Source: Enterobacteria phage JenP1
Reading direction: 5' to 3' (one strand)
Sequence record: NC_029028.1
DNA: 60,754 nucleotides
Of this stretch, positions 4,807 to 58,616 are shown piece after piece. The notes under the pieces are model-generated. The model made no database searches and had not been told where the DNA came from. It worked only from the letters and a program-made list of their open reading frames with translations. A program made the translations under genes and the position numbers. Every line of letters starts with the position of its first letter. The stretch's first letter is position 1.

Positions 4807-5910
4807 ATGTCTAAAATTCTGTCAGCTCCGATGCTTAATTTGCGAGCTACCAATTCAATTCTTCTGTCTGCTGTTCGTCGCGGTGCGATCACTGAACTAG
4901 AAAACGTTATCGTTCCAGAAATCTTTGTACCATATGTACAGAACCGCACGACTGAAAAGTCCCGACTGATTCAGTCTGGTGCTATTGAGATCTCTGAACG
5001 TCTGAACGCTGCATTGATGGGTGAAGGTACTACCTTTAACCAGCGTTTCTTCAAAGACCTTGATCGTGACGAAGAAAACGTTTCAAGTGCAAGCGATTCA
5101 ACTGATTCTACTCCTGGTGGTATCAACTCCGGTCGTGAAATTCAGATCCGTCTGTCTCGTAACCATTCCTGGGGTTCTGCAGACCTGCTGGACAGCTTGA
5201 TCTCCCCTGACCCTCTGGATGCTATCATTAATCTGGTGGCAAGTTACCGTCAGAGTCGTCTGCAACGTGCATTCGTTGCGACTGTAAGTGGTGTGTTTGC
5301 TATGAACGCCGCTGCTCCGACTGGTTCCGGTGATAAGAAGTCTACTCACGTTCAGAACGATATGACACACGATATCTCTGGTTCAACTTTCACTGACGGT
5401 GTAACTAACTTCAACCCGGCTGGTGTTATCCTGGCTGCTGGTACTATGGGTGACTCCCTGAACGAGCTGTCCATGATGATGGTTCACAGTGTGGTTTACC
5501 AGCGTATGCAGCTCATGAACCTGATCGACTTCATTCCGGATGCTCGTGCTGAAGTGATGATCCCGACCTACATGGGTCGTGAAGTTATCGTTGATGATAT
5601 GATGCCTCACAATAGCGGTAAGTACGAAACCTGGCTGGTTGGTCGTGGTGCATTCCAGTTGGGTGTTGGTTCACCGAAAGTTCCTGTTGAAACTGAACGT
5701 AAACCTGCATCCTACAAAGGTGGTGGTTCTGAAATCCTGTTCCACCGCTGGGAAAACATCATTCACCCTGTCGGTCACGCATGGGTTGGTACTGCTGCTG
5801 AAGGTGGCCCGGATAACGCCGCTCTGAAGACTGCTACCAACTGGGCTCGTGTATTCCCTGAGCGTAAACAGATTAAGATTGCTCGTCTGATCACTCGCGA
5901 ACATGCTTAA
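4807..5910 (+). CDS. major capsid protein
   Basis: 367 aa ORF after scaffold gene, followed by a strong intrinsic terminator; GGAG upstream of ATG 4807 (ORF track starts at 4675). Confidence 0.7.
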   Translation: MSKILSAPMLNLRATNSILLSAVRRGAITELENVIVPEIFVPYVQNRTTEKSRLIQSGAIEISERLNAALMGEGTTFNQRFFKDLDRDEENVSSASDSTDSTPGGINSGREIQIRLSRNHSWGSADLLDSLISPDPLDAIINLVASYRQSRLQRAFVATVSGVFAMNAAAPTGSGDKKSTHVQNDMTHDISGSTFTDGVTNFNPAGVILAAGTMGDSLNELSMMMVHSVVYQRMQLMNLIDFIPDARAEVMIPTYMGREVIVDDMMPHNSGKYETWLVGRGAFQLGVGSPKVPVETERKPASYKGGGSEILFHRWENIIHPVGHAWVGTAAEGGPDNAALKTATNWARVFPERKQIKIARLITREHA

Positions 5911-29409: not shown

Positions 29410-29890
29410 CGAACTTATTTCCTTTCGATCTGTTCTCGTGCTTTGGTAAATACTGTAAATTACACATTACATGAAGTCCACTTACCAACTCGCCAAGTAG
29501 AGGTATTATATGATCCACTTCATACCCATCTGGGCAATTTTCGTAGAATCGTTTAATCTCTTCTTTCTCTGACCATGCTGGAACTCTTAATAAACGTTGT
29601 GCTCTACAATAGGACGATATACTTCTACATAAATGTTTATTATCTTCATAGAATTGAGATTGTCTAATTCTATTTCTCTCTTTAACATCTGGTCTTTGAA
29701 AATAATCTCTGTTAGCTCTCCTGTATTTTTCAGGATTTTGTTGATAATATTTAATCTGGTCTTCGTTAGCACAAACTACACATCCACCAGTGACATGTCT
29801 TTCTGCTATATGACCTCTCTTACAAGGTTTACCAGTATAATAACGTTTTAGCCCCTTCTCTATAGCTTGTTTTCTAGATATAATGTGCAT
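29402..29890 (-). CDS. HNH endonuclease
   Basis: 162 aa; HNH core EVDHIIPL...GL...N.Q; N-terminal Cys/His cluster; AGGTGA RBS. Confidence 0.65.
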   Translation of the reverse strand: MHIISRKQAIEKGLKRYYTGKPCKRGHIAERHVTGGCVVCANEDQIKYYQQNPEKYRRANRDYFQRPDVKERNRIRQSQFYEDNKHLCRSISSYCRAQRLLRVPAWSEKEEIKRFYENCPDGYEVDHIIPLLGELVSGLHVMCNLQYLPKHENRSKGNKFDV

Positions 29891-29959
29891 TGTTCACCTA
29901 ACAAATAAGCGCCCGTAGGCGCTTATTATATTAAAGATAACGTATGATTCGCAAATCAG

Positions 29960-30559
29960 TTACTTTTTACACGCTTCAAGGAATTCTTTGCGCCAAATGT
30001 AACCGTTCTCAGTTTCCATACCGAAATCACCAATCGCAGTTGCGCCACGGAATGCTTTAGTAATAGTAGAGCTTCCGCATACCTGTTTAACACCGCGCGA
30101 CTCCATACACATATGCTTGGCGTCAATATAAACACACACAGCTTTCGGGTCCAAGTGCTCTACGATGGCATCCGCAATTTGGTTAGTTAGACGCTCTTGG
30201 ACTTGCAAACGACGAGCAAAAGCATCTACGACGCGAGACAGTTTAGAAAGCCCAACAATTTTCCCATTTGGTACATATCCCACAACAGCACGACCGATAA
30301 TGGGAGCCATATGATGCTCACAATGGCTATAAACTGGAATATCACGGACGATGACCATTTCATTACAGTTTTCCCCACCATCTTCAAAGGTCTTGAACAG
30401 AGATGCAATATCAGTATTGTAACCACCGAACCACGTCTCAAATGCTTTAGCAACACGTTCAGGTGTTTCTTCTAACCCTGGACGAAGAGGACCAAAATCA
30501 TTTTCTTCAATCTGACGAAGGATATTTTCAATGTGTTGCGCAATAACAAATTTATTCAT
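29960..30559 (-). CDS. folE: GTP cyclohydrolase I
   Basis: 199 aa; VRDIPVYSHCEHHMAPIIG and GLSKLSRVVDAFARRLQVQERLT closely match E. coli FolE motifs. Confidence 0.85.
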   Translation of the reverse strand: MNKFVIAQHIENILRQIEENDFGPLRPGLEETPERVAKAFETWFGGYNTDIASLFKTFEDGGENCNEMVIVRDIPVYSHCEHHMAPIIGRAVVGYVPNGKIVGLSKLSRVVDAFARRLQVQERLTNQIADAIVEHLDPKAVCVYIDAKHMCMESRGVKQVCGSSTITKAFRGATAIGDFGMETENGYIWRKEFLEACKK

Positions 30560-30585
30560 GGTTTACAGTTTCCTTGTGTGGTCAA

Positions 30586-31101
30586 TCATTTGCAATAGTT
30601 GACATGACATTTGGACGTTTCTTCAATGGTGCATTCTACCAGTTCAACACCATACTCGTCAAGAAGTTGTGGGCCGATTACGTCAACCATATATGCAGCT
30701 AAGTTTTCCGCAGTTGGGTTGAACGGTAAAGATACCAGCGAGTTGTCAAAGTCCCTTACATCACGACCCGTAGTTTCGTCACAAAGTTCACAATCAACTT
30801 GAAGAGCTTTAATCAAAGGATCTTCTTCCCAATGCAGGAATTTATGATCCCAGTTGTCTTCCAGCCATTGACAGAGTGTAGTTTTAACCACACTAAAGTC
30901 AATCACTCGCCCAACAGCGTCCAACTTTCCAGGCTTAGTTGCCATACTTGCTGGCGCTATGCCTGGGATTGTTTCAGGTTTCGGCGCAACTTTAAAATGG
31001 AACTTATAGTTGTGACCGTGAAGGTGGCGACATTTACTTTCATGCCCTACAACACGATGCCCAGCGCAAATCTCATGTGAACGAATGACAGTGTAACCCA
31101 T
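30586..31101 (-). CDS. queD: 6-carboxy-5,6,7,8-tetrahydropterin synthase
   Basis: 171 aa; AGHRV...CRHLHGHNYKF zinc-binding/catalytic motif characteristic of QueD/PTPS. Confidence 0.8.
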   Translation of the reverse strand: MGYTVIRSHEICAGHRVVGHESKCRHLHGHNYKFHFKVAPKPETIPGIAPASMATKPGKLDAVGRVIDFSVVKTTLCQWLEDNWDHKFLHWEEDPLIKALQVDCELCDETTGRDVRDFDNSLVSLPFNPTAENLAAYMVDVIGPQLLDEYGVELVECTIEETSKCHVNYCK

Positions 31102-31103
31102 TT

Positions 31104-32519
31104 TTATTCCTCGTTTTCGTATTTAATAACTTCTTGTGCGTTATTAATATTAAACGCAGTCTGGCGCATCATGCAAGGGCCGCAAGTACCACAATGCAAA
31201 TCCCCGTTACGGTAACAGCTCCAGGTATGCTCAAGCGGGGCCCCTAAACGCAGACCTGTAGCGACAATTTCGTGCTTCATTAAGTTACCTACTGGCATGA
31301 GCACTTCAACGCGCTTACCGTCACCTACAGCGAACGGTAACACTTGATTAAAGCGGTTAATAAACTCAGGCTCATTATCGGGGTAGGCTCCAGCTTCTTC
31401 TAAATTGTTACCAAGAACAATATAGTCAAAACCGTTAGCTTCTGCGTATGCAGTAGCAACAGAAAGCATTACAAGGTTACGAGCTGGAACCCATTCATGC
31501 GCGAACTCAGCGCCTTCTTCACCGCCAGCAATTGCAGCATCTTGATCAAATAATGGGCTATCTTTCTTATCATAAATTGGGATTGGAAATTCAATTAATG
31601 GAACTTCCATCACCTCCGCAATCTTACGAATAGCATACAGCTCATTAGTTTCTGCACGACAACCATATTGGAAGTTAATCAGAGTAACATCTAAACCATT
31701 GGACTTACACATTTGAGCTGCTACTGTGCTGTCCATACCACCACTGGCAACAACTAACGCGCGTTGAGTCTGCTTATTTGGAATAAGATCAACTTCATTG
31801 CATACATCAGTCGATGTGACCACATTGCAGGTGTAAGGTTTCAGCATTTGCTTAATAGCACGGGTTGGTAGCATATCCTCCTGGCTGGCAAAATACATAC
31901 CCGTCTGAGTCTTACCAATCCAAATTGGACGGTAATTACATGCTGCAAACACATACCCAGGAAGTGAATCATGTGTCGCAAGGATCGCGAAGCTACCTTT
32001 CAATTTGCGAACAACTTCATGAAACACACTGTACAGGTAATTAAAGTCAGACAAACACATTTCATCTGCTGAAAGTGTACATTCTGCTAACTGTTCGACA
32101 ATCGCAGCACTATCAATCTTAGTCTGTAGTGCATAGGTACGAAGGTCTTTATCGTTCGCAATAGTACCGTTATGAACAATAGTCCAACCATCCATATGAT
32201 AAGGTTGCTGATCCCACTCATTCTTGTCAACGACCCACTCTGTAGTCGGTTCAGCGCGAGCGTTACCAATCATTGTGAAGCTACCGATAGCTCCAGCATG
32301 AGATGCAATGCGCCCAACTTTAACAAGACGTTCCAGGGATGTTTCCTTACCGACACTAACGATACGTTGCGGGTGCATACTGTGGTCACCATGCGTAAAG
32401 CGTACACCAAGACCATCACGACCACGATTGATACTAGCTTTAATGAGATCGTTGATATCGTTACGAATGATAAGACTTTCAGGTTGACCGTTAGTAATAA
32501 CACCAAAGATAGAGCACAT
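31104..32519 (-). CDS. gat-queC: glutamine amidotransferase (class II)-QueC fusion (Gat-QueC type)
   Basis: N-terminus MCSIFG like asparagine synthetase class II GATase; C-terminal QueC motifs VVASGGMDST, FQYGCRAE, VPARN, CYRNG...CGTCGPC; ATG 32519 (ORF track starts upstream at 32567). Confidence 0.75.
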   Translation of the reverse strand: MCSIFGVITNGQPESLIIRNDINDLIKASINRGRDGLGVRFTHGDHSMHPQRIVSVGKETSLERLVKVGRIASHAGAIGSFTMIGNARAEPTTEWVVDKNEWDQQPYHMDGWTIVHNGTIANDKDLRTYALQTKIDSAAIVEQLAECTLSADEMCLSDFNYLYSVFHEVVRKLKGSFAILATHDSLPGYVFAACNYRPIWIGKTQTGMYFASQEDMLPTRAIKQMLKPYTCNVVTSTDVCNEVDLIPNKQTQRALVVASGGMDSTVAAQMCKSNGLDVTLINFQYGCRAETNELYAIRKIAEVMEVPLIEFPIPIYDKKDSPLFDQDAAIAGGEEGAEFAHEWVPARNLVMLSVATAYAEANGFDYIVLGNNLEEAGAYPDNEPEFINRFNQVLPFAVGDGKRVEVLMPVGNLMKHEIVATGLRLGAPLEHTWSCYRNGDLHCGTCGPCMMRQTAFNINNAQEVIKYENEE

Positions 32520-32520
32520 A

Positions 32521-33282
32521 TTATTTACCTTCTTTAACCATTTCAATTTCACGCTCAACGGATACAATAATGTCGTTGAGGTCTTCTAGCAAGTCTTTAT
32601 GACCTCGCTCACCAGCACACAGCACTTTCTTCAGTGCATGTTGCATGGGCCCACTGGTTACATTGAATGCTTTAATTACGTCGTACACGTCAACCCATAC
32701 ATCAATTTCGATTGGGCTACCATTAATGTCATGGGATTCAAAAGTTTTAATTTTGCGCATATATTTATTTGGACGTGGAGCTTTAATCTCCTGGATACAA
32801 CCCTTGTCGATAAACGTTTCTTTAATGAATACTTCAGGATTGCCTTCTTTGTCACGGTCAACGTTAAAGACATTCATAAGTAGATCGTCCATGATACTGG
32901 TTAATTTCTGAGTAGACGTTGTGTGCTTCACGGTATTCGCTTCCGCTTCTTCTGGCACTTTCTGGCTTCTTCTGGCAGAAGCATTGATTCGCCATTTGTA
33001 AAGTGCATTGCGTGGAGGTGTTACATGCGTGTTGTAGACAGTCTTTAAGTTCATAAGATCGTGTCCATCCATACCTTCAACAAAGACAGTGAGTGCAGGA
33101 CAACTATCGTTCAAAACATCCACTACATATCCTTCTCGAATTACAGATGCAAGAGCTGCATGGGACGCGGCCTGAGAAACTGTGGTTACATAATGTTTTA
33201 CAAATCCGTCTTCATCAAACAGACACTGGTTCAACACATTTTCTGGAACGATTTCACCGAGTAATTGAACGTACTTATTCAT
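32521..33282 (-). CDS. hypothetical protein embedded in 7-deazaguanine cluster
   Basis: 253 aa ORF between queE and gat-queC, translationally coupled to gat-queC; no motif recognised. Confidence 0.45.
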   Translation of the reverse strand: MNKYVQLLGEIVPENVLNQCLFDEDGFVKHYVTTVSQAASHAALASVIREGYVVDVLNDSCPALTVFVEGMDGHDLMNLKTVYNTHVTPPRNALYKWRINASARRSQKVPEEAEANTVKHTTSTQKLTSIMDDLLMNVFNVDRDKEGNPEVFIKETFIDKGCIQEIKAPRPNKYMRKIKTFESHDINGSPIEIDVWVDVYDVIKAFNVTSGPMQHALKKVLCAGERGHKDLLEDLNDIIVSVEREIEMVKEGK

Positions 33283-33394
33283 AATGATTTACCTTATCAG
33301 TTGAACATACCATGTCTTCTAGCGCGTTGACCGTCACCGGCATAATGATCATTAGCCACAGCAATCATCCACGCGTTTTTGAATATGTATAACT

Positions 33395-34102
33395 TCACTC
33401 TACACCTAAATACTTGTGAACCTGTAATTGCACGATGTAATTATGCTTCATTGCATATTTAACGACAGCTTGAGCGTTTGCTTTATTAGCATCGTCGTCC
33501 TGTTCATCCATAGGTTGAAGATAAATTTTACCTTTAAAGTGTACAGGCGGACGTGCGATAAATGGTGTCGCACGGTGATCCAGTGCCTGCAACGGTAATC
33601 CATCTTCCTCGTTGACGTTTCCGCTTTTCATTACATATTTGAAAGCATCTGCTCGAGCGGAAACGCTAGGGTGAACCTTTGCTGCCTTAGGACTACATAC
33701 TACCACACAGTTATAGTTGAGTTCACGCGGGATGGGCATAGTTCCGTTAGTTTCAACCTGTACACGATAACCTTTCATATCGATAAGGTAGTTGATAAAA
33801 TTAACAACTTCGGGTTGACGGAAAGGTTCGCCGCCAGTAATGACAACTAATTTAGTCTTGGCTTCACCAGTGACACGGACAATCTCTTGCCAAATGTCAC
33901 CGTGATTCATCTTCTTACGATTGGACGTATAGTTTGTGTCACATCCTGGGCATTGCAGATTACAACCAGCTAATCGAACAAATACGGCGGGTTGACCACA
34001 AAATGGGCCTTCACCTTGAATGGTATGAAAAATGGAATGTACATCAAGAATACCACGTTCACGAACTAGCTTCTCAGGTTCCTGAGTATTAATAATTTTC
34101 AT
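33395..34102 (-). CDS. queE: 7-carboxy-7-deazaguanine synthase (radical SAM)
   Basis: 236 aa from ATG 34102; motif IQGEGPFCGQPAVFVRLAGCNLQCPGCDT matches QueE. Confidence 0.8.
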   Translation of the reverse strand: MKIINTQEPEKLVRERGILDVHSIFHTIQGEGPFCGQPAVFVRLAGCNLQCPGCDTNYTSNRKKMNHGDIWQEIVRVTGEAKTKLVVITGGEPFRQPEVVNFINYLIDMKGYRVQVETNGTMPIPRELNYNCVVVCSPKAAKVHPSVSARADAFKYVMKSGNVNEEDGLPLQALDHRATPFIARPPVHFKGKIYLQPMDEQDDDANKANAQAVVKYAMKHNYIVQLQVHKYLGVE

Positions 34103-34227
34103 ATGATTTCCAAATTTGGCTTGAGCCCAGTGGTGGGCGATAATGGCTTGTGCAAACATTTGAACCTCGGGGTAAGATAACAAAGGGGCAGTAAATGCCC
34201 CTTCTGAGTTTCCGAAGTATCTACAGA

Positions 34228-35148: not shown

Positions 35149-35871
35149 TTAATTTAAGCCACGTTCTTTTACCCAGACCCCTAATGTATTACTTGATGTA
35201 TTACGCTTCACACCTTGTGCCTCTAAACGATCCATCATTTGTTTTCTAAGCTGAAGGATTTCCTTCTTGTCATGAGGTTCACCAGCTTCTTTCCACATTT
35301 CGTCAGCAACAGCGAAAATAATATCGCGAGTGCCGGCTGTACGCGACGTTGCGGCACGTTTTTCGTTTGCCGGTGTGCTAGTACCTTGCCGCTCTCTTGT
35401 CGGTGTCCATACCCCTTGTATGCCCATATTTGTTTGTACGGTTGGGCCGTCAATGATGGTGGATTCCAATGAACTATCATTCCGTACTTGAATATTAGGC
35501 TCCTCCCCCAAATCTGGAACAGAGCTGCCTTCGCGGTACATGCACTCACCCTCTTTATTACTAGCAATTGCCCAGTCCGCTTGTTCAGCCACATCCGCAT
35601 CTATTACTGTCTCCGGTATTTCATTTAAAAAGTAATGGATGATCTTACTGATCATTTTCTTTGGATATAAAGCACCTTGCTTATTACCCGTTAAGTTGAT
35701 GTACAAAAGTTGCATTTGCACATCATCAAACTCTTTATACAGTTCTTCAACTTCTAACGGAAGAACTACAGAACTTTCGCTACAGCATAGAATTCCATAC
35801 TCATGAAGACGTTGGAAGTTTGGATGCTTAGCTAATATCTGCATCCGATCGTAATCAATTAAGACGTACAT
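35149..35871 (-). CDS. hypothetical protein
   Basis: 240 aa from ATG 35871 (ORF track 35949); start abuts upstream stop. Confidence 0.4.
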   Translation of the reverse strand: MYVLIDYDRMQILAKHPNFQRLHEYGILCCSESSVVLPLEVEELYKEFDDVQMQLLYINLTGNKQGALYPKKMISKIIHYFLNEIPETVIDADVAEQADWAIASNKEGECMYREGSSVPDLGEEPNIQVRNDSSLESTIIDGPTVQTNMGIQGVWTPTRERQGTSTPANEKRAATSRTAGTRDIIFAVADEMWKEAGEPHDKKEILQLRKQMMDRLEAQGVKRNTSSNTLGVWVKERGLN

Positions 35872-35872
35872 G

Positions 35873-36112
35873 TTAATCCTTCCACCACTCGGGCCCACAA
35901 TACATTCCACGTAGTTCTTCACGCATGTAATTTTCAAACTCGTCTTCAATGTTGATTACTTGACTTTCGTGAAAAACTGCCACACCATGAATAAATCGTT
36001 TAGCTCTTTCCCCTTTAATTACACCGTAACCTAACTCCTCCCACTCTTTAAAAGTTTTCCATTCACCTTCTTCCGGTGAATGGTCGTCACTTCTAAACGT
36101 CATCTTTGCCAT
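35873..36112 (-). CDS. hypothetical small protein
   Basis: 79 aa from internal ATG 36112, directly after helicase stop. Confidence 0.35.
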   Translation of the reverse strand: MAKMTFRSDDHSPEEGEWKTFKEWEELGYGVIKGERAKRFIHGVAVFHESQVINIEDEFENYMREELRGMYCGPEWWKD

Positions 36113-36119
36113 ATAAGCC

Positions 36120-38123
36120 TCAAAATGGAATGTCGTCATCAAAATCTGGTGGTAGCTCTTTACCGTTACCAGTAAGAATAGGTTGATTAGACGTAGAATG
36201 CAATACTGTCGTACGGGAATCAGTCTGCTCATCTTCATCAAACTTATTCGTATAACTGCCACCAAACTGGGACAGACCATTCATTGCTGCGATTTGTACA
36301 ACCGGACGTTCGTTGGTTGCCTCTTTCTTACCGAACTCACTACCGTCATAACAACTATTCAACACTTCGGGGAACTTACCCTTCAAGTTGACATAAATGT
36401 GCGTCGGTACACGAAGCTGGCTGACCACATTGAGGGCTTCGTCAATGTTAGCTGGGATTGCCAGGCTGCAATGCTCACGCCACCAGTTACGCGCTTTCTT
36501 ACCCGCAAAGCCGGTATGGAACAGGCAGATATATTGTTGAATAGTTTGTGAGCCACAAAGATAATCGACACGAAGTGTTGGTGGCTTAGAACGGTCACCC
36601 CTGTTCTCGTGACGATAATAACTCACCATATCAACTTTCAACACTTCAGTAACTGGTAAATCATTCTTGATAATAGCTTTCGTACTTGCACTCGCCATCA
36701 GTTTCTTCTCAAAAGTAAACTCATGGCCGCAATAACCAGCACGACACGCTTTATTATTTGTAATGGTATAACCTAATCCTTGTAGATAGAGTATTTCTTC
36801 ATGAGACATGCTGCTTGTGTCGAATGGTTTTAACCCACCACAGAAGCGAACTGACGCATGGTTCCATGTCTTACATATTGGACATTCCTTAACAGGTGCA
36901 GCGGATTTTCCTTTCTGCCCTGGGCGCTTAGGAATGACCGGGTCATTAATAGGCCCAAGACGTCTTGTGTTACCTGCATAATCCAATACAAGACAGTTCT
37001 GTTTATGCGAAGCGGAGATAGCTTGCAAACGACCCTCTGTTGTGGTCAAATCAAAACCATCTGCATAATCAGGTCGCGTACCACGTCCAAGCATCTGAAC
37101 CCACAAACGGGAAGATTGAGATGGTCGCATACCAATTATCAAGTCAAGTCCAGGATGGTCGAAGCCTGTCGTTAATACGTTGTTGTTTGCTATTGCCTGC
37201 AAACGACCAGCTTTAAAATCAATAAGATACTGGTCACGCAAGGCTTTCGGTGTATCACCAGTTACAACTTCACAACTAATACCGCGCTCGTTGAGGTAGT
37301 CTTTGACATCTTTTGCATGGTCTACACCAGCACAAAAGATAAGCCAACTCATTCTATTCTCTTCTTCCGCAATACTAATCGCATCATCTAATAAATGGCG
37401 AGTTACATCAGGATCGTTTACAACCTTTTGAAGCTCACTTTCAATGAACTCACCTCCTCGAGTATGAACACCACTTACATCATACTCTTTCTTTGTTTTA
37501 CGTGGTACTAACGGAACAAGATAACCTTCATCGATGAACCAGTTGAAGCACTCTACGGTACACGCGTTAAATACGATTTCATCAAATAGAGCGTTAGGCG
37601 CATAATCATCTTTGATAATAGAACCAAAACCAAGACGCCAACTCGTAGCAGTAAGACCGATAATCTTTAGATATGGATTCTTTTCACGAATGTGCGCAAA
37701 GAACTTCTGATAACTTGTTTGCTGATTTGGACTAATAAGGTCACATTCGTCAACTATAATAATATCAACGTCCTCAAAGTATTTAGCTTGTTTTGCAACA
37801 GACTGAATACCCGCGAACGTTATCATTGCGTTCTTATCTTTGCGGCCCATACCAGCACTATAAATACCAGTCGGTGCTTCAGGCCACAATTTCTTGAATT
37901 TATCGTGGTTCTGGTCTATTAATTCTTTTACGTGAGTAATTACCATCATGCGGGTACTACCCCAATTATCATGAATTGTCTTTAATAGACCAGCAATTAC
38001 AAGGGACTTACCAGTCCCTGTAGGCAACAAGATAACAGGATTTCCTGACTTTTCACCATGCTTGATGAAATAGCGCAATGTACTATTTACAGCTTCTTGC
38101 TGATAATCACGTAGTTTGAACAT
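36120..38123 (-). CDS. SF2 DNA helicase with C-terminal zinc-finger region and SSB-like C-terminal tip
   Basis: Walker A LLPTGTGKS, DECD box, later helicase motifs; Cys clusters CPICK...C and CRAGYCGHEF; final residues DFDDDIPF. Confidence 0.7.
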   Translation of the reverse strand: MFKLRDYQQEAVNSTLRYFIKHGEKSGNPVILLPTGTGKSLVIAGLLKTIHDNWGSTRMMVITHVKELIDQNHDKFKKLWPEAPTGIYSAGMGRKDKNAMITFAGIQSVAKQAKYFEDVDIIIVDECDLISPNQQTSYQKFFAHIREKNPYLKIIGLTATSWRLGFGSIIKDDYAPNALFDEIVFNACTVECFNWFIDEGYLVPLVPRKTKKEYDVSGVHTRGGEFIESELQKVVNDPDVTRHLLDDAISIAEEENRMSWLIFCAGVDHAKDVKDYLNERGISCEVVTGDTPKALRDQYLIDFKAGRLQAIANNNVLTTGFDHPGLDLIIGMRPSQSSRLWVQMLGRGTRPDYADGFDLTTTEGRLQAISASHKQNCLVLDYAGNTRRLGPINDPVIPKRPGQKGKSAAPVKECPICKTWNHASVRFCGGLKPFDTSSMSHEEILYLQGLGYTITNNKACRAGYCGHEFTFEKKLMASASTKAIIKNDLPVTEVLKVDMVSYYRHENRGDRSKPPTLRVDYLCGSQTIQQYICLFHTGFAGKKARNWWREHCSLAIPANIDEALNVVSQLRVPTHIYVNLKGKFPEVLNSCYDGSEFGKKEATNERPVVQIAAMNGLSQFGGSYTNKFDEDEQTDSRTTVLHSTSNQPILTGNGKELPPDFDDDIPF

Positions 38124-39074
38124 TTACTCACCGTAATAATCTGCTGCTTCGTATTGACCACATGCTGCCATCTGGTCTTCCTTCGTTAACACACCTTCGG
38201 TTCCATCGGTGATGTATGCAGTAGCAGAAGCTACTTTAATTGCACATCTCCAGGTTCCATCTTCAAGCGGATAAGAGTGCTTACAGGTGCGGCAGTTAAC
38301 TTCAGGCATCTTATTGTTGTGACATACCGCCTTGTGGTCACACCATTTGCATTTATAGTAAGACTTACTTTCATTGATCTTAGGTGGTGGGCATTCTGCC
38401 AGTGCAATTACAAATCCACGGTCTTTGTAGCGTTCTGCGGTTTCTTTATCAAACGGTACAAGCTCTGCCCAAATCTCGTCCGTGTTCTTGTTGACTGCAA
38501 TATAAAGAGCGGCTGGGAGTCCATAATACAACATGTATTCCTGCATCTGAACATAGTGTTCCCATTTGGATTCCATCACACCATTAACGACAAGTTTCTT
38601 GAATGAATCGTTATTGTGCGTTTTCATCTCCGTTAAGATTGGTGTAGAAGGTTGTGGCATGTCAGGGCAACCAATGACAATACCATCTATCGCGGAGCCA
38701 AAGTGCCCGTTGAGATAGCTAACTCGATACTGGCTGCCATTTTCGTCTTGTTGGATGACTTGCATACCGGCGGTAAGTAGTAAGGCCACGAAGCGACCTT
38801 CTTCAAGATGCCCGCGATTGAATAGACGTAAGGTTTTACCGTTAAAGTGTGGTTTAGTTGCCCATCGCCATCCGTAGAAGATTGCTCTACTACATTCTTG
38901 CCCGATAAGACTAATCCCAAGATGCGAACGGAATCCGCCATCTCCCTCTCGATATGCGTCTTCAATATGCGGTAATACTTTTCCGAGCCATACTCTGTAA
39001 GCGGATCCTTGATCTCGTTCAATACAGTCATTGAATAACTCCATTGTCCTAGTAGCAGGATAAAAATGTGGCAT
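38124..39074 (-). CDS. PD-(D/E)xK nuclease, RecB-family/Cas4-like with C-terminal Cys cluster (putative exonuclease)
   Basis: motifs AIDGIV, LTEMK, QMQEYMLYY (QxxxY) and multiple C-terminal cysteines. Confidence 0.5.
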   Translation of the reverse strand: MPHFYPATRTMELFNDCIERDQGSAYRVWLGKVLPHIEDAYREGDGGFRSHLGISLIGQECSRAIFYGWRWATKPHFNGKTLRLFNRGHLEEGRFVALLLTAGMQVIQQDENGSQYRVSYLNGHFGSAIDGIVIGCPDMPQPSTPILTEMKTHNNDSFKKLVVNGVMESKWEHYVQMQEYMLYYGLPAALYIAVNKNTDEIWAELVPFDKETAERYKDRGFVIALAECPPPKINESKSYYKCKWCDHKAVCHNNKMPEVNCRTCKHSYPLEDGTWRCAIKVASATAYITDGTEGVLTKEDQMAACGQYEAADYYGE

Positions 39075-39136: not shown

Positions 39137-40084
39137 TTACTGTGCAGCGTCATCGCCTTCAGTGGAACGTTTCCACGGTGGAGTCTTGGTCTGAGCTGCT
39201 TTAGCGATATCGTCCTGGACTTCTGGTTCTGCATGGTTAGCAGTACCAGTATTCTGAGCTTGAGTTTGTGGTTGCTCTGCTCCAGGTTGTACCTGCTGAG
39301 TTGCCCAGTTAGGTTGCTGCTGAGTCTGCTGCTGCGGTTGCTGCGCACCAGTAGCCCACGGTTGAGATTGTGCCGCACTGTTAAAATCAACTGTTCCAGA
39401 CTGCTGAGGTTGCTGCTGTTGCTGTACCGGCTGCTGCGGCTGTTGTTGCTGTTGTTGCTGTTGTTGCTGCTGGAACCCCTGAGTCTGAGGTTGCTGCTGC
39501 TGTTGCTGCTGTTGCTGCGGCTGCTGCCCAAATGCGCCCGGGAAACCCTGCTGCGGTTGCTGCTGTGGCTGCTGAGTACCACCGAACGCACCGCCACCAA
39601 ATGCTGGAGACTGTGCTGCCGCTGCCGGAGTTGATTTAGGCAGGTTAGCCATGTCCGCCTTAGTTGCGTATACAACACCTTCCATATTATCAATTGCTTG
39701 ATAAATCTGAGGTTCGTTGTTTGGCTCATAGCCAGGTTGCTGACGAACTTTCACTTTCAGGTTGAACGGAATACCGTGCAGTTGTTCGGTATCGTTCCAA
39801 ACTGGAACTTTAACAGCACGAGACAGCTCTGCCAGTTCTTCCATTGCAATCTGTACAGCGACAGGGTTTGCGTTCTTGACGTTGTAACCGCCAAACATCA
39901 CACGACCAGCAAAATCACCCTGCATAATCTTAAACTGAAGATTCAGACGCGCACCGCCTGGAGTTTTAGTCGGTTTGATCTCAGAGTTTACAATCTGAAC
40001 AACATACCAACCAGCGGGCATCAAGCTATTGTGTTGACGCTCTGCGTGTTGTCCAGCGTTAAATTGCATTCCTAAACCGGCCAT
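39137..40084 (-). CDS. DUF669-like putative ssDNA-binding protein with long poly-Gln linker
   Basis: N-terminal WYVVQIVNSEIKPTKTPGGARLNLQFKIMQGDFAGRVMFGGYNV resembles DUF669 family; central ~60-residue Q-rich tract; adjacent to Sak4-like ATPase. Confidence 0.5.
   Translation of the reverse strand: MAGLGMQFNAGQHAERQHNSLMPAGWYVVQIVNSEIKPTKTPGGARLNLQFKIMQGDFAGRVMFGGYNVKNANPVAVQIAMEELAELSRAVKVPVWNDTEQLHGIPFNLKVKVRQQPGYEPNNEPQIYQAIDNMEGVVYATKADMANLPKSTPAAAAQSPAFGGGAFGGTQQPQQQPQQGFPGAFGQQPQQQQQQQQQPQTQGFQQQQQQQQQQQPQQPVQQQQQPQQSGTVDFNSAAQSQPWATGAQQPQQQTQQQPNWATQQVQPGAEQPQTQAQNTGTANHAEPEVQDDIAKAAQTKTPPWKRSTEGDDAAQ
39395..39600 (-). repeat. CAG/CAA trinucleotide-rich tract encoding poly-glutamine
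   Basis: runs of CTGCTG/TTGCTG on plus strand giving Q runs on minus strand. Confidence 0.8.
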
Positions 40085-40830
40085 TATTGTACCCCTTTGA
40101 TTTTGTTAATGATTGCACCGAGATGTGGATATTCCATCTGTTCTAACGAACCAGAACGATCTTTACATACATTTGACAGATCTGGTCTGGTCAGCAGATA
40201 ACGAAAATCTGCTTGAGTATTTTGGTCTTTACCAACACTAATTTTGAACACTTCGTCAAAAAAGTATGGTAGTTCTGGACCTAATTTTGCACCAGGCATA
40301 GAAGGACCGTAAGACGTAATACCTGTCAACTCATCCTTGTTACGGGACATTTTAGCTGCCATGTACACGTTAAGTCCAGGGATATCTCGAAAAGCGCGAA
40401 CTAAAGTTTGCATCTTCTCAATAAGATCCCCATAAGCCTGACGCGGATCTTTCACAGTACGCTTCGCATTGTTAAGGCACTTTTCAGCAATCTCAGTAAG
40501 TGAATCCAGCGCAAGAGACTGAAAGCGCGGTAAACCATCTTCACCTACAGGATTGTTTGCAGGGTTAGTCGCCCAAACATAAGCCTGCTCTACATCCTGG
40601 ATATTTTCAACCGTGATGGTTGGAATATCGTAGCAGATATCTGGTCTGTTTTCACCAAATACACGAGCAATGTTATTTGGTGTTAAAGATAAGAGCCCAG
40701 ACTCCGCAGAAATCAGCAACGGTCTTGGAAGAGTTGCTGTAAGCATGGTTTTACCCATACCAGATTCACCATACACAAGCATCTTGACACCAGTGTCCAG
40801 AACTGCTTGAGCGGTAGTTGTAAATTGCAT
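40084..40830 (-). CDS. Sak4-like RecA-fold ATPase (single-strand annealing/recombination)
   Basis: Walker A VYGESGMGKT near N-terminus, ~250 aa, next to DUF669 gene. Confidence 0.55.
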   Translation of the reverse strand: MQFTTTAQAVLDTGVKMLVYGESGMGKTMLTATLPRPLLISAESGLLSLTPNNIARVFGENRPDICYDIPTITVENIQDVEQAYVWATNPANNPVGEDGLPRFQSLALDSLTEIAEKCLNNAKRTVKDPRQAYGDLIEKMQTLVRAFRDIPGLNVYMAAKMSRNKDELTGITSYGPSMPGAKLGPELPYFFDEVFKISVGKDQNTQADFRYLLTRPDLSNVCKDRSGSLEQMEYPHLGAIINKIKGVQ

Positions 40831-58122: not shown

Positions 58123-58616
58123 TGACTGCAATTGCTTATCGCAATGGGATACTAGCTGTAGATCGTCAGGTTACATGGGGTAATGTTGCAACAACTACAA
58201 ATAAAGTTCATACTGTCAATATTCCAGGGATTGGACTGTGCCTTGTTGCAATGTCTGGTAAACTACGTCCTGTAGATGATATTGTAGAACATCTGAAAAC
58301 TACGGTTCGTGGTCGTAAAGAACCTTTCTCGGATTTAAATCCAGATTCCCGTTATGGTATTGCAGTGACGCAGGAACTTGTCGTGTATCCTATCTACGGG
58401 GATGGTAAATTAGGCCTACCGGACACCAACGAATTTATTGCCGAAGGTAGTGCGTTTGAGTTCTTGATGGGCACAATGGCGGCAGGTTGCACCGCCGAAG
58501 AAGCTGTACAATTGGCCTGCCAGTATTGTGATAGCTGTGGTCAGGGTGTCAACTTCTATGACGTAGCTTATACTCTTAAAATGGCTCAGTGTACAACCGA
58601 GGAGGAACCATTTTGA
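58122..58616 (+). CDS. HslV/proteasome beta-subunit-like Ntn-hydrolase (threonine peptidase fold)
   Basis: N-terminus MTAIAYRNGILAVDRQVTWGN parallels HslV [24 protein letters not shown]; Thr directly after Met; internal Lys and GSA motif in register. Confidence 0.55.
   Translation: MTAIAYRNGILAVDRQVTWGNVATTTNKVHTVNIPGIGLCLVAMSGKLRPVDDIVEHLKTTVRGRKEPFSDLNPDSRYGIAVTQELVVYPIYGDGKLGLPDTNEFIAEGSAFEFLMGTMAAGCTAEEAVQLACQYCDSCGQGVNFYDVAYTLKMAQCTTEEEPF

Follow-up and report, generated by a model that had tools for sequence, protein, structure and literature searches.

Why should a bacteriophage helicase end in the same eight residues as SSB, its host's single-stranded DNA-binding protein? The case arises in Enterobacteria phage JenP1 (sequence record NC_029028.1), an E. 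coli siphophage. The stretch analysed, hereafter the window, is 60,754 nucleotides long and is essentially an entire Nonagvirus genome (9g/JenK1-like, Queuovirinae), with its genes ordered as in JenK1. Its minus strand encodes, at 36120–38123 (stop codon included), a 667-residue superfamily 2 (SF2) helicase that resembles E. coli RadD, as judged from the open reading frame (ORF), Pfam, phrog_16, the match to RadD in the Protein Data Bank (PDB) and Foldseek. The protein ends in DFDDDIPF, the sequence of the SSB C-terminal tip (SSB-Ct), which serves as the central docking site for genome maintenance in bacteria and has been taken up as a target for antibiotics. Our analysis indicates that this tip is very probably a functional, tethered docking peptide of the SSB-Ct type and a portable element of the phage replication and recombination cassette.

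The match to SSB is exact. The helicase ORF starts at an ATG and ends ...NGKELPPDFDDDIPF, followed by a stop codon at 36120–36122; the tip comprises residues 660–667 (36123–36146, minus strand). The SSB of E. coli K-12, as translated from NC_000913.3, has the C-terminus ...SNEPPMDFDDDIPF and is identical to the helicase tip at 8 of 8 positions, with a Pro-Pro pair nearby in this protein too. Run against the host SSB itself, the comparison bears out the octapeptide identity that an earlier note on this DNA had claimed. No other ORF in the six frames of the window has an [ILV]PF C-terminus, and an arithmetic estimate with typical residue frequencies puts the chance of such a C-terminus at ~4e-11 per protein. 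A sequence error or frame artefact at the 3' end, raised as a caveat when the match was first noticed, was checked and is ruled out: the gene is intact and full-length in 16 deposited Nonagvirus records (94–98% nucleotide identity), and its 90% cluster holds 205 member sequences.

Between the enzyme and its tip lies a disordered linker (residues 619–659; 36147–36269, minus strand), delimited by AlphaFold2 confidence (predicted local distance difference test, pLDDT, below 50) and by its hypervariable sequence and length in relatives. In the model, residues 619–667, tip included, have pLDDT values of 39–50 and are left free rather than docked on the protein. The earlier note's description of a Gly/Gln/Ser-rich disordered stretch is right as to disorder but only partly so as to composition, as the 45 residues ahead of the tip are rich in Thr, Ser, Gly and Asn and include only three Gln. 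The resulting layout, a folded enzyme followed by a disordered tether of ~40 residues and then the tip, is that of SSB.

Selection on the tip and its carriers

Nearly all of the best 120 database relatives of the helicase (44–99% identical) terminate in an acidic run followed by [IV]PF. Among the 112 aligned relatives (44–83% identical), 108 end in PF, 107 in [IV]PF, 48 in DDDIPF and 12 in the full DFDDDIPF. Right-anchored entropy over the last six positions of these 112 sequences is 2.0, 0.9, 1.4, 0.9, 0.1 and 0.3 bits, against ~3.8–4.1 bits over the fifty positions that precede them. The linker past the conserved G598 varies from 15 to 112 residues (median 44) and has no sequence conservation. 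In the closest clade (helicases 69–99% identical), the conserved block is [VL]P-x-DF[DE]DDIPF with an unconserved linker just upstream, and PMDFDDDIPF, a 10-residue match to SSB, occurs four times. Read from these alignments, the tip is a short linear motif that strong purifying selection has preserved, not a chance resemblance. Because the tail is real, identical to that of SSB, mounted on a disordered tether and strongly selected, the protein-docking role first proposed for it is well supported at the level of sequence.

Some relatives hold the motif twice. Five of them (P0060, P0077, P0098, P0110 and P0124) have two DDDIPF copies ~20–25 residues apart in the tail, of which the internal copy cannot offer a free carboxylate. 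The pattern suggests that tails grow through duplication, with subsequent decay of the older copy.

The tip is far from universal in the wider family. An exhaustive search of 1.84 billion representatives returned 25,674 helicase relatives. Among the best 150 of these (50%-identity cluster representatives), ~27 have the tip and the others stop right after a ...VWVNKKYPEIL-type element, conserved in the family, that closes the folded C-terminal domain; tail-less relatives in general terminate just past it. For the more distant helicases whose match is confined to the motor, those of Mycobacterium phage Arbiter, Corynebacterium phage phi674, Lactococcus phage P087, Bacteroides phage BS-TP2, Serratia phage Ulliraptor, Brucella phage Tb and Vibrio phage 1268, no tip was found on the helicase or within 1.5 kb of it.

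Where the helicase lacks the tip, another protein often has it. The helicase is the carrier in Nonagvirus, in Seuratvirus (DDPDYVPF), in the Nipunavirus PaMx25 (DLDDDIPF) and in Stenotrophomonas phage BUCT626 (YEDDDIPF). It is tip-less in Kakheti25, RHph_Y55, S144 and PH669, and in all four a neighbouring protein carries the tip. In Kakheti25 the carrier is gp28, a beta-clamp-like “processivity factor” that ends NYEDDIPF. Tip-bearing clamps of this family (phrog_947) are encoded at 25739–26881 (minus strand) in Kakheti25 (locus L017), 6945–8012 in L026, 12630–13736 in L047, 3242–4399 in L074 and 6511–7689 in L088. They extend ~15–75 residues beyond tip-less clamps at the C-terminus, and the extension ends in DDIPF.

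In S144, RHph_Y55 and PH669 the carrier is a Cys-rich protein of ~75–85 residues that ends ...YDIPF or ...GDIPF and is encoded just after the helicase gene (5634–5867 in S144, L008; 5679–5933 in RHph_Y55, L006; 5661–5888 in PH669, L005), and many of the loci L021–L103 have such a gene. In S144 and RHph_Y55 the gene overlaps the end of the helicase gene, and the proteins match phrog_23504, a family of unknown function; their Cys pattern suggests that they are probably zinc ribbons. Across the loci these mini-proteins are ~65–100 residues long, follow tail-less helicase genes, in several cases overlapping the helicase stop codon, and end ...GC-x(3-5)-[DE]-x-IPF. A further kind of carrier, comprising Pfam DUF6511 proteins of ~100–130 residues (measured stop to stop) encoded right after the helicase, ends EVPF, ECPF or DDPPF. 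It occurs in L031, L036, L046, L049, L054 and L105–L176, in prophages of Rhodobacterales, Sphingomonadales and Limnohabitans, and which variant it bears appears to follow host lineage or helicase subgroup. Among cultured phages, tblastn with DUF6511 gave two weak Synechococcus phage matches only.

We quantified this association in 160 further loci, 80 from IMG/VR and 80 from bacterial genomes (mostly Alpha- and Betaproteobacteria prophages). When a tip is defined strictly, as [ILVM]PF immediately preceded by two or more acidic residues, 37 of the 8,039 ORFs of at least 40 codons in the 80 viral loci carry it. Thirty-six of the 37 lie on the helicase strand, and all 36 stop 0–3.5 kb downstream of the helicase stop codon. 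A looser definition, applied to the 155 loci with a complete helicase N-terminus, assigns the tip to the helicase in 14, to the clamp in 3 and to a small downstream ORF in 89; 40 have none and 9 are undecidable. Among ORFs that stop within 700 nt past the helicase stop, 81 of 646 end in [ILVMPCA]PF, compared with 12 of 22,756 control ORFs located upstream, far downstream or on the opposite strand (odds ratio 272, p ~1e-114, for loci that are phylogenetically related and ORFs that were called mechanically). A single carrier is seen per locus, with the sole exception of L092, where a second candidate lies on the opposite strand 6 kb away.

A RadD-like motor and a phage SSB without the tip

The carrier in JenP1 is itself a relative of a protein that binds the SSB tip. 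Pfam places ResIII (1.7e-21), DEAD (2.3e-13) and Helicase_C (1.3e-12) within residues 2–350, in keeping with the SF2 assignment made earlier from the sequence alone, and the hallmark Walker A motif GTGKS (residues 36–40) and DExx box DECD (125–128) are invariant in alignments of relatives. The closest solved relative by sequence is E. coli RadD (PDB 6jde, E=6.8e-65, residues 2–388); BLASTP aligns the two at 37% identity over 431 residues (E=4e-74), in an alignment that covers the motor and reaches into the zinc ribbon. On the NCBIfam model RadD_YejH (NF053632) the helicase matches profile positions 1–389 of 573 and scores 294.6 bits, and because this is below the cut-off of 720 we call it RadD-like and not a RadD equivalog.

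Its AlphaFold2 model, built on an alignment of 112 relatives, has a mean pLDDT of 87.9, with residues 1–618 mostly above 90. The eight best PDB matches in a Foldseek search are all RadD and cover ~650 aligned columns, with template modelling scores of 0.43–0.53 and a root-mean-square deviation of ~20 Å; such low scores along a full-length match suggest that the modelled domains are oriented differently. Alignment to RadD delimits the RecA-like motor domains RD1 and RD2 (residues 1–390; 36954–38123, minus strand). The zinc-ribbon region that follows (residues ~411–470; 36714–36893, minus strand) has four Cys (C414, C417, C428 and C465) that are invariant in both helicase alignments and consistent with the zinc ribbon of RadD, which PMC9049331 describes. 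The folded C-terminal domain (residues ~490–618; 36270–36656, minus strand) is defined by pLDDT values of ~90 or more and by consensus sequences. Pfam gave helicase domains alone and the best structural matches were all RadD, with no oligonucleotide/oligosaccharide-binding (OB) fold found in the helicase; the carrier is not an SSB.

Many helicase relatives (P0032, P0124, P0127, P0137 and others; 800–1583 residues) are 300–900 residues longer than the rest. P0032 contains PF05203, PF05204 and PF14528, which we take to be homing-endonuclease or intein families, and this suggests that the helicase gene is a frequent intein target.

How much of the receptor site does the phage motor retain? Motor domain 1 of E. 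coli RadD has a binding pocket for the SSB tip, framed by R21, R49 and R145, each of them essential, over a hydrophobic floor of T16, L17, F20, L44, L113 and L147, and the peptide alone stimulates the RadD ATPase (PMC10238739). In the phage motor the counterpart comprises T15, L16, F19, L46, I121 and I155, so that the floor is conservatively kept at 6 of 6 aligned positions, together with K153 and R58. K153 aligns to RadD R145 and is Lys or Arg in 111 of 112 sequences, and R58 is basic in 108 of 112; across the alignment groups both are Lys or Arg in 78–100% of sequences, whichever protein bears the tip. RadD R21 aligns to a variable site and R49 to a variable, non-basic position (S56), with R58 two residues off. 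The pocket is conserved alike whether the helicase has its own tail, a neighbouring carrier or no tip, which makes a co-variation test non-discriminating. RadD itself ends ...FRLAHELRG, without a tip.

The phage also encodes an SSB-like protein of its own, a 315-residue DUF669 protein with a Gln-rich linker (39137–40084, minus strand; Pfam DUF669; phrog_6015, “single strand DNA binding protein”). Its C-terminus, ...TPPWKRSTEGDDAAQ, has TPPW 13 residues before the end and no SSB tip, and its last residues, ...PPWKRSTEGDDAAQ, differ from the helicase tail. In 128 DUF669 relatives, from loci that include L003–L008 and L018–L177, a PF tip was found in none. A Trp occurs in the last seven residues of 125 of the 128, mostly as Pro-Trp (PPW, APW or KPW followed by 1–6, often basic, residues). 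The DUF669 protein of phage HK620 is a true SSB whose last six residues, NDYPPF, recruit the annealase Sak4; by analogy, the Pro-Trp tail is likely the counterpart of the tail that HK620 Sak4 needs. The phage SSB is thus without the tip, and the cassette therefore carries its single tip on another protein, which in JenP1 is the helicase.

Candidate receptors for the tip

What, then, would the tip dock on? We consider the main receptors to be host proteins for which the SSB tip is the normal docking site. The free Pro-Phe carboxylate, held off the helicase by the ~40-residue disordered linker, would plug into their SSB-Ct-binding pockets, and the helicase would bring host genome-maintenance factors to phage DNA coated by a non-host SSB. 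A template coated by DUF669 protein would otherwise be invisible to those factors, which counts for a host receptor. So does the enterobacterial-phage clade, where P-x-DFDDDIPF is kept and the match to the host sequence extends past the six core residues. The tip left undocked in the AlphaFold2 model, and the precedent of phage annealases (Redbeta, HK620 Sak4) that recognise SSB tails, count on the same side. Since the carriers seem interchangeable, the receptor is probably none of them. On these sequence comparisons, hijacking of host SSB-interacting proteins is a plausible account, to which we give somewhat less than even confidence.

A more specific version is tentative. The tip may be a portable plug, normally present once per copy of a very widespread cassette (a RadD-like helicase, a Cas4 nuclease and a DUF669 SSB, to which Sak4, a family-B polymerase and a beta-like clamp may be added), that joins a replisome whose SSB has no tip to the host SSB interactome. 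One candidate target, a speculative guess, is the chi subunit of the host clamp loader, which might load the phage clamp. It is proposed because the JenK1 annotation lists a clamp-like factor and no clamp loader; in JenK1 positions 20000–60747 none is annotated, and a DnaN-like factor and a family-B polymerase are present there. If this version is true, it separates the hub function of SSB from SSB itself.

Several observations weigh against docking on host proteins. Tips have diverged among sister phages that share the host (DDPDYVPF in Seuratvirus), and carrier tips drift from the host consensus to DYVPF and, in Alpha- and Betaproteobacteria prophages, to EVPF, ECPF and DDPPF, a drift that strict host mimicry does not predict. 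About 40 related loci, mostly Acetobacteraceae prophages, show no tip. Each helicase would present one tail, without the four-tail avidity of the SSB tetramer. The helicase descends from an SSB-Ct receptor and retains much of its pocket, and the chi and clamp-loader idea is a guess. The RadD homology of the helicase and the drift of the tips on some carriers together keep a phage-internal receptor in play.

Two attempts to read the drift as host tracking were given up. The DDPPF tips, on GC-rich contigs, look like the actinobacterial SSB tip; the idea was dropped, as these loci lie in Beta- and Alphaproteobacteria (Limnohabitans, Accumulibacter). The DDLPF variant of one relative (P0090) gave no host signal, the tail protein on its contig resembling counterparts from Pseudomonas, Salmonella and Vibrio phages. 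Every full-length relative from a cultured phage has a proteobacterial host, and the host-tracking test therefore has little power.

The leading alternative to a host receptor, possible if rather doubtful, is that the tip binds the RadD-type pocket of the helicase itself and acts as an activator or recruiter, in cis or between helicases in JenP1 and from the clamp or mini-protein in relatives. A pocket of this kind and its stimulation by peptide are experimentally established for RadD (PMC10238739), of which the phage helicase is a homologue, and the phage motor keeps the floor conservatively and, in every subgroup, basic residues at K153 and R58. With single-stranded DNA coated by a DUF669 protein that has no tip, the cassette would itself supply the activating or recruiting peptide. 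Carrier genes are fused with the helicase gene, overlap it or lie directly against it, and the tips of the mini-proteins drift from the host consensus as a co-evolving phage pair would. Against this, only R145 of the three Arg essential in RadD is conserved at its aligned position, and a tip on the helicase itself would not be equivalent, for bridging, to one on the clamp. Host-identical residues at positions -7, -8 and -10 would also be left unexplained. As for stable docking in cis, AlphaFold2 leaves the tail undocked even with the 112-sequence alignment (pLDDT below 50 for residues 619–667), and this form of the idea is unsupported.

It is unlikely that the tip docks instead on another phage protein (the family-B polymerase, a primase-helicase, the Cas4 nuclease, Sak4 or the DUF669 SSB), in the manner of T7. 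The T7 precedent (PMC1616965) speaks for such a partner, as does the requirement of HK620 Sak4 for NDYPPF, and a receptor outside the three carriers fits their interchangeability. A private phage pair, however, has no need of an 8–10-residue identity to the host SSB, and loci of the DUF6511 type bear tips with no polymerase or clamp gene observed within 10 kb. Sak4 in particular is disfavoured: the HK620 SSB is itself a DUF669 protein, and because the DUF669 proteins of this cassette retain a conserved Pro-Trp tail, Sak4 probably already has its handle in that plausible partner.

Less probable still is a decoy or competitor for the pockets of host nucleases and helicases (ExoI, RecQ, RecJ and others), or a feature that is read by, or evades, defences that sense SSB. 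Such a tip would protect phage intermediates or disturb host repair, and the defence system DRT10 is triggered by Bas52_0087, a phage protein with an FDDDIPF tip (bioRxiv 10.64898/2026.04.29.721553). Micromolar, monovalent binding would, however, demand very high helicase levels, and a tip placed on a clamp or on a mini-protein coupled to the helicase argues for local assembly over bulk titration. A coincidental resemblance, or a functionless frame or assembly artefact, can be set aside in view of the same gene in 16 genomes, a tip kept in more than 100 diverged relatives behind unconserved linkers and its enrichment beside the helicase gene (p ~1e-114).

Known tip carriers and the surrounding genome

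How does the JenP1 helicase compare with systems already described? The E. coli SSB-Ct (MDFDDDIPF) shares its last eight residues, acidic run, free C-terminal Pro-Phe and disordered linker. SSB is an OB-fold tetramer that binds single-stranded DNA and presents four tails on a Gly/Gln/Pro-rich linker, whereas the phage carrier is a monomer-type SF2 helicase with one tail on a Thr/Ser/Gly/Asn-rich linker. E. coli RadD (YejH) resembles the helicase in sequence (37% identity), as the top structural match along the chain, in the four zinc-ribbon Cys and in the pocket floor with one basic rim residue. It differs in being a receptor of the tip and not a carrier, and two of its three essential Arg are not conserved at the aligned positions of the phage protein.

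The closest precedent is a helicase of phage T7. In that phage, the gp4 helicase-primase and the gp2.5 SSB both have acidic, Phe-terminated tails that engage the polymerase and replisome of the phage. Like the JenP1 protein, gp4 is a phage helicase with an acidic, aromatic-terminated, SSB-like C-terminal tail (PMC1616965). It differs in being a hexameric SF4 enzyme with a tail that resembles the phage's own SSB (gp2.5), not that of the host; the JenP1 enzyme is SF2 and RadD-like, its tail copies the host SSB tip and the tail of the phage DUF669 protein is different. The HK620 Sak4/DUF669 pair belongs to the same type of cassette and likewise uses a short Pro-aromatic C-terminal tail as a partner handle. 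In HK620 it is the phage SSB that bears the tail and Sak4 that is bound, while JenP1 DUF669 has Pro-Trp plus a few residues and the helicase bears the host-type tip. Bas52_0087 (FDDDIPF) is likewise a phage protein with the host SSB tip and a suspected interface to host SSB partners such as SbcB, for which competition has been proposed (bioRxiv 10.64898/2026.04.29.721553). Its carrier is an SSB-like OB-fold, as against a helicase here and, among relatives, a clamp or zinc-ribbon mini-protein. On the receiving side, the Redbeta annealase binds an SSB-Ct peptide with a dissociation constant of 11 µM.

Earlier descriptions thus exist of host-type tips on phage SSB-like proteins, of phage annealases that recognise SSB tails and of the SSB-like tail of the T7 helicase. 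Our literature searches turned up no account of the SSB tip on an SF2 or RadD-like helicase, on a clamp or on mini-proteins, nor of the tip switching carriers, and the database records examined label the carriers plainly as helicase, processivity factor or hypothetical protein. The earlier note's remark that such mimicry is not commonly annotated therefore agrees with what we found: neither a paper nor an annotation describing the helicase tail. The previously described tip carriers that we found are SSBs and SSB-like proteins, and here the tip sits on an enzyme descended from one of the tip's own receptors. This opens a handle on how phages with non-canonical SSBs join, or insulate themselves from, the host SSB interactome, and on the roles of phage RadD-like helicases and of two families of unknown function (phrog_23504 and DUF6511). 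C-terminal x-Pro-Phe tips are worth scanning for when phage replication genes are annotated, and proteins that bear them may matter for defence systems that sense phage SSBs.

In the JenP1 genome the helicase sits in a replication and recombination cassette with the Sak4 annealase, the DUF669 SSB and the Cas4 nuclease, joined in this phage by a family-B polymerase and a beta-like clamp. The gene for the Cas4/RecB-type exonuclease (38124–39074, minus strand; assigned from the ORF and the JenK1 annotation) has a stop codon that abuts the helicase start, and it is adjacent to the helicase in nearly all related loci. Beyond the DUF669 gene lies a Sak4-like (AAA_24) single-strand annealing ATPase (40084–40830, minus strand; Pfam AAA_24, JenK1 annotation). 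The beta-clamp-like “DNA polymerase processivity factor” (330 residues; 27455–28447, minus strand) belongs to phrog_947 and has a weak DnaN match (TIGR00663, E=8.7e-6); in JenP1 it ends ...VIVGFRL, without the tip.

A 7-deazaguanine DNA-modification cluster, expected for Queuovirinae, is placed between the polymerase and clamp genes and the helicase cassette (28456–34183, minus strand; TGT/DpdA-like, GTP cyclohydrolase, QueD, an amidotransferase gene and QueE). Downstream of the helicase, a 79-codon ORF (35873–36109, minus strand) begins 10 nt past the helicase stop and overlaps the start of a longer ORF (35149–35949, minus strand), the counterpart of a hypothetical gene annotated downstream of the helicase in JenK1. 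The 79-codon ORF was considered as a zinc ribbon and tip carrier of the phrog_23504 type and ruled out, as it has one Cys and no tip. Elsewhere, a plus-strand ORF of 165 codons ending at 58616, the counterpart of an HslV-family peptidase annotated in JenK1, ends ...CTTEEEPF, an acidic run followed by Pro-Phe with no hydrophobic residue at -3.

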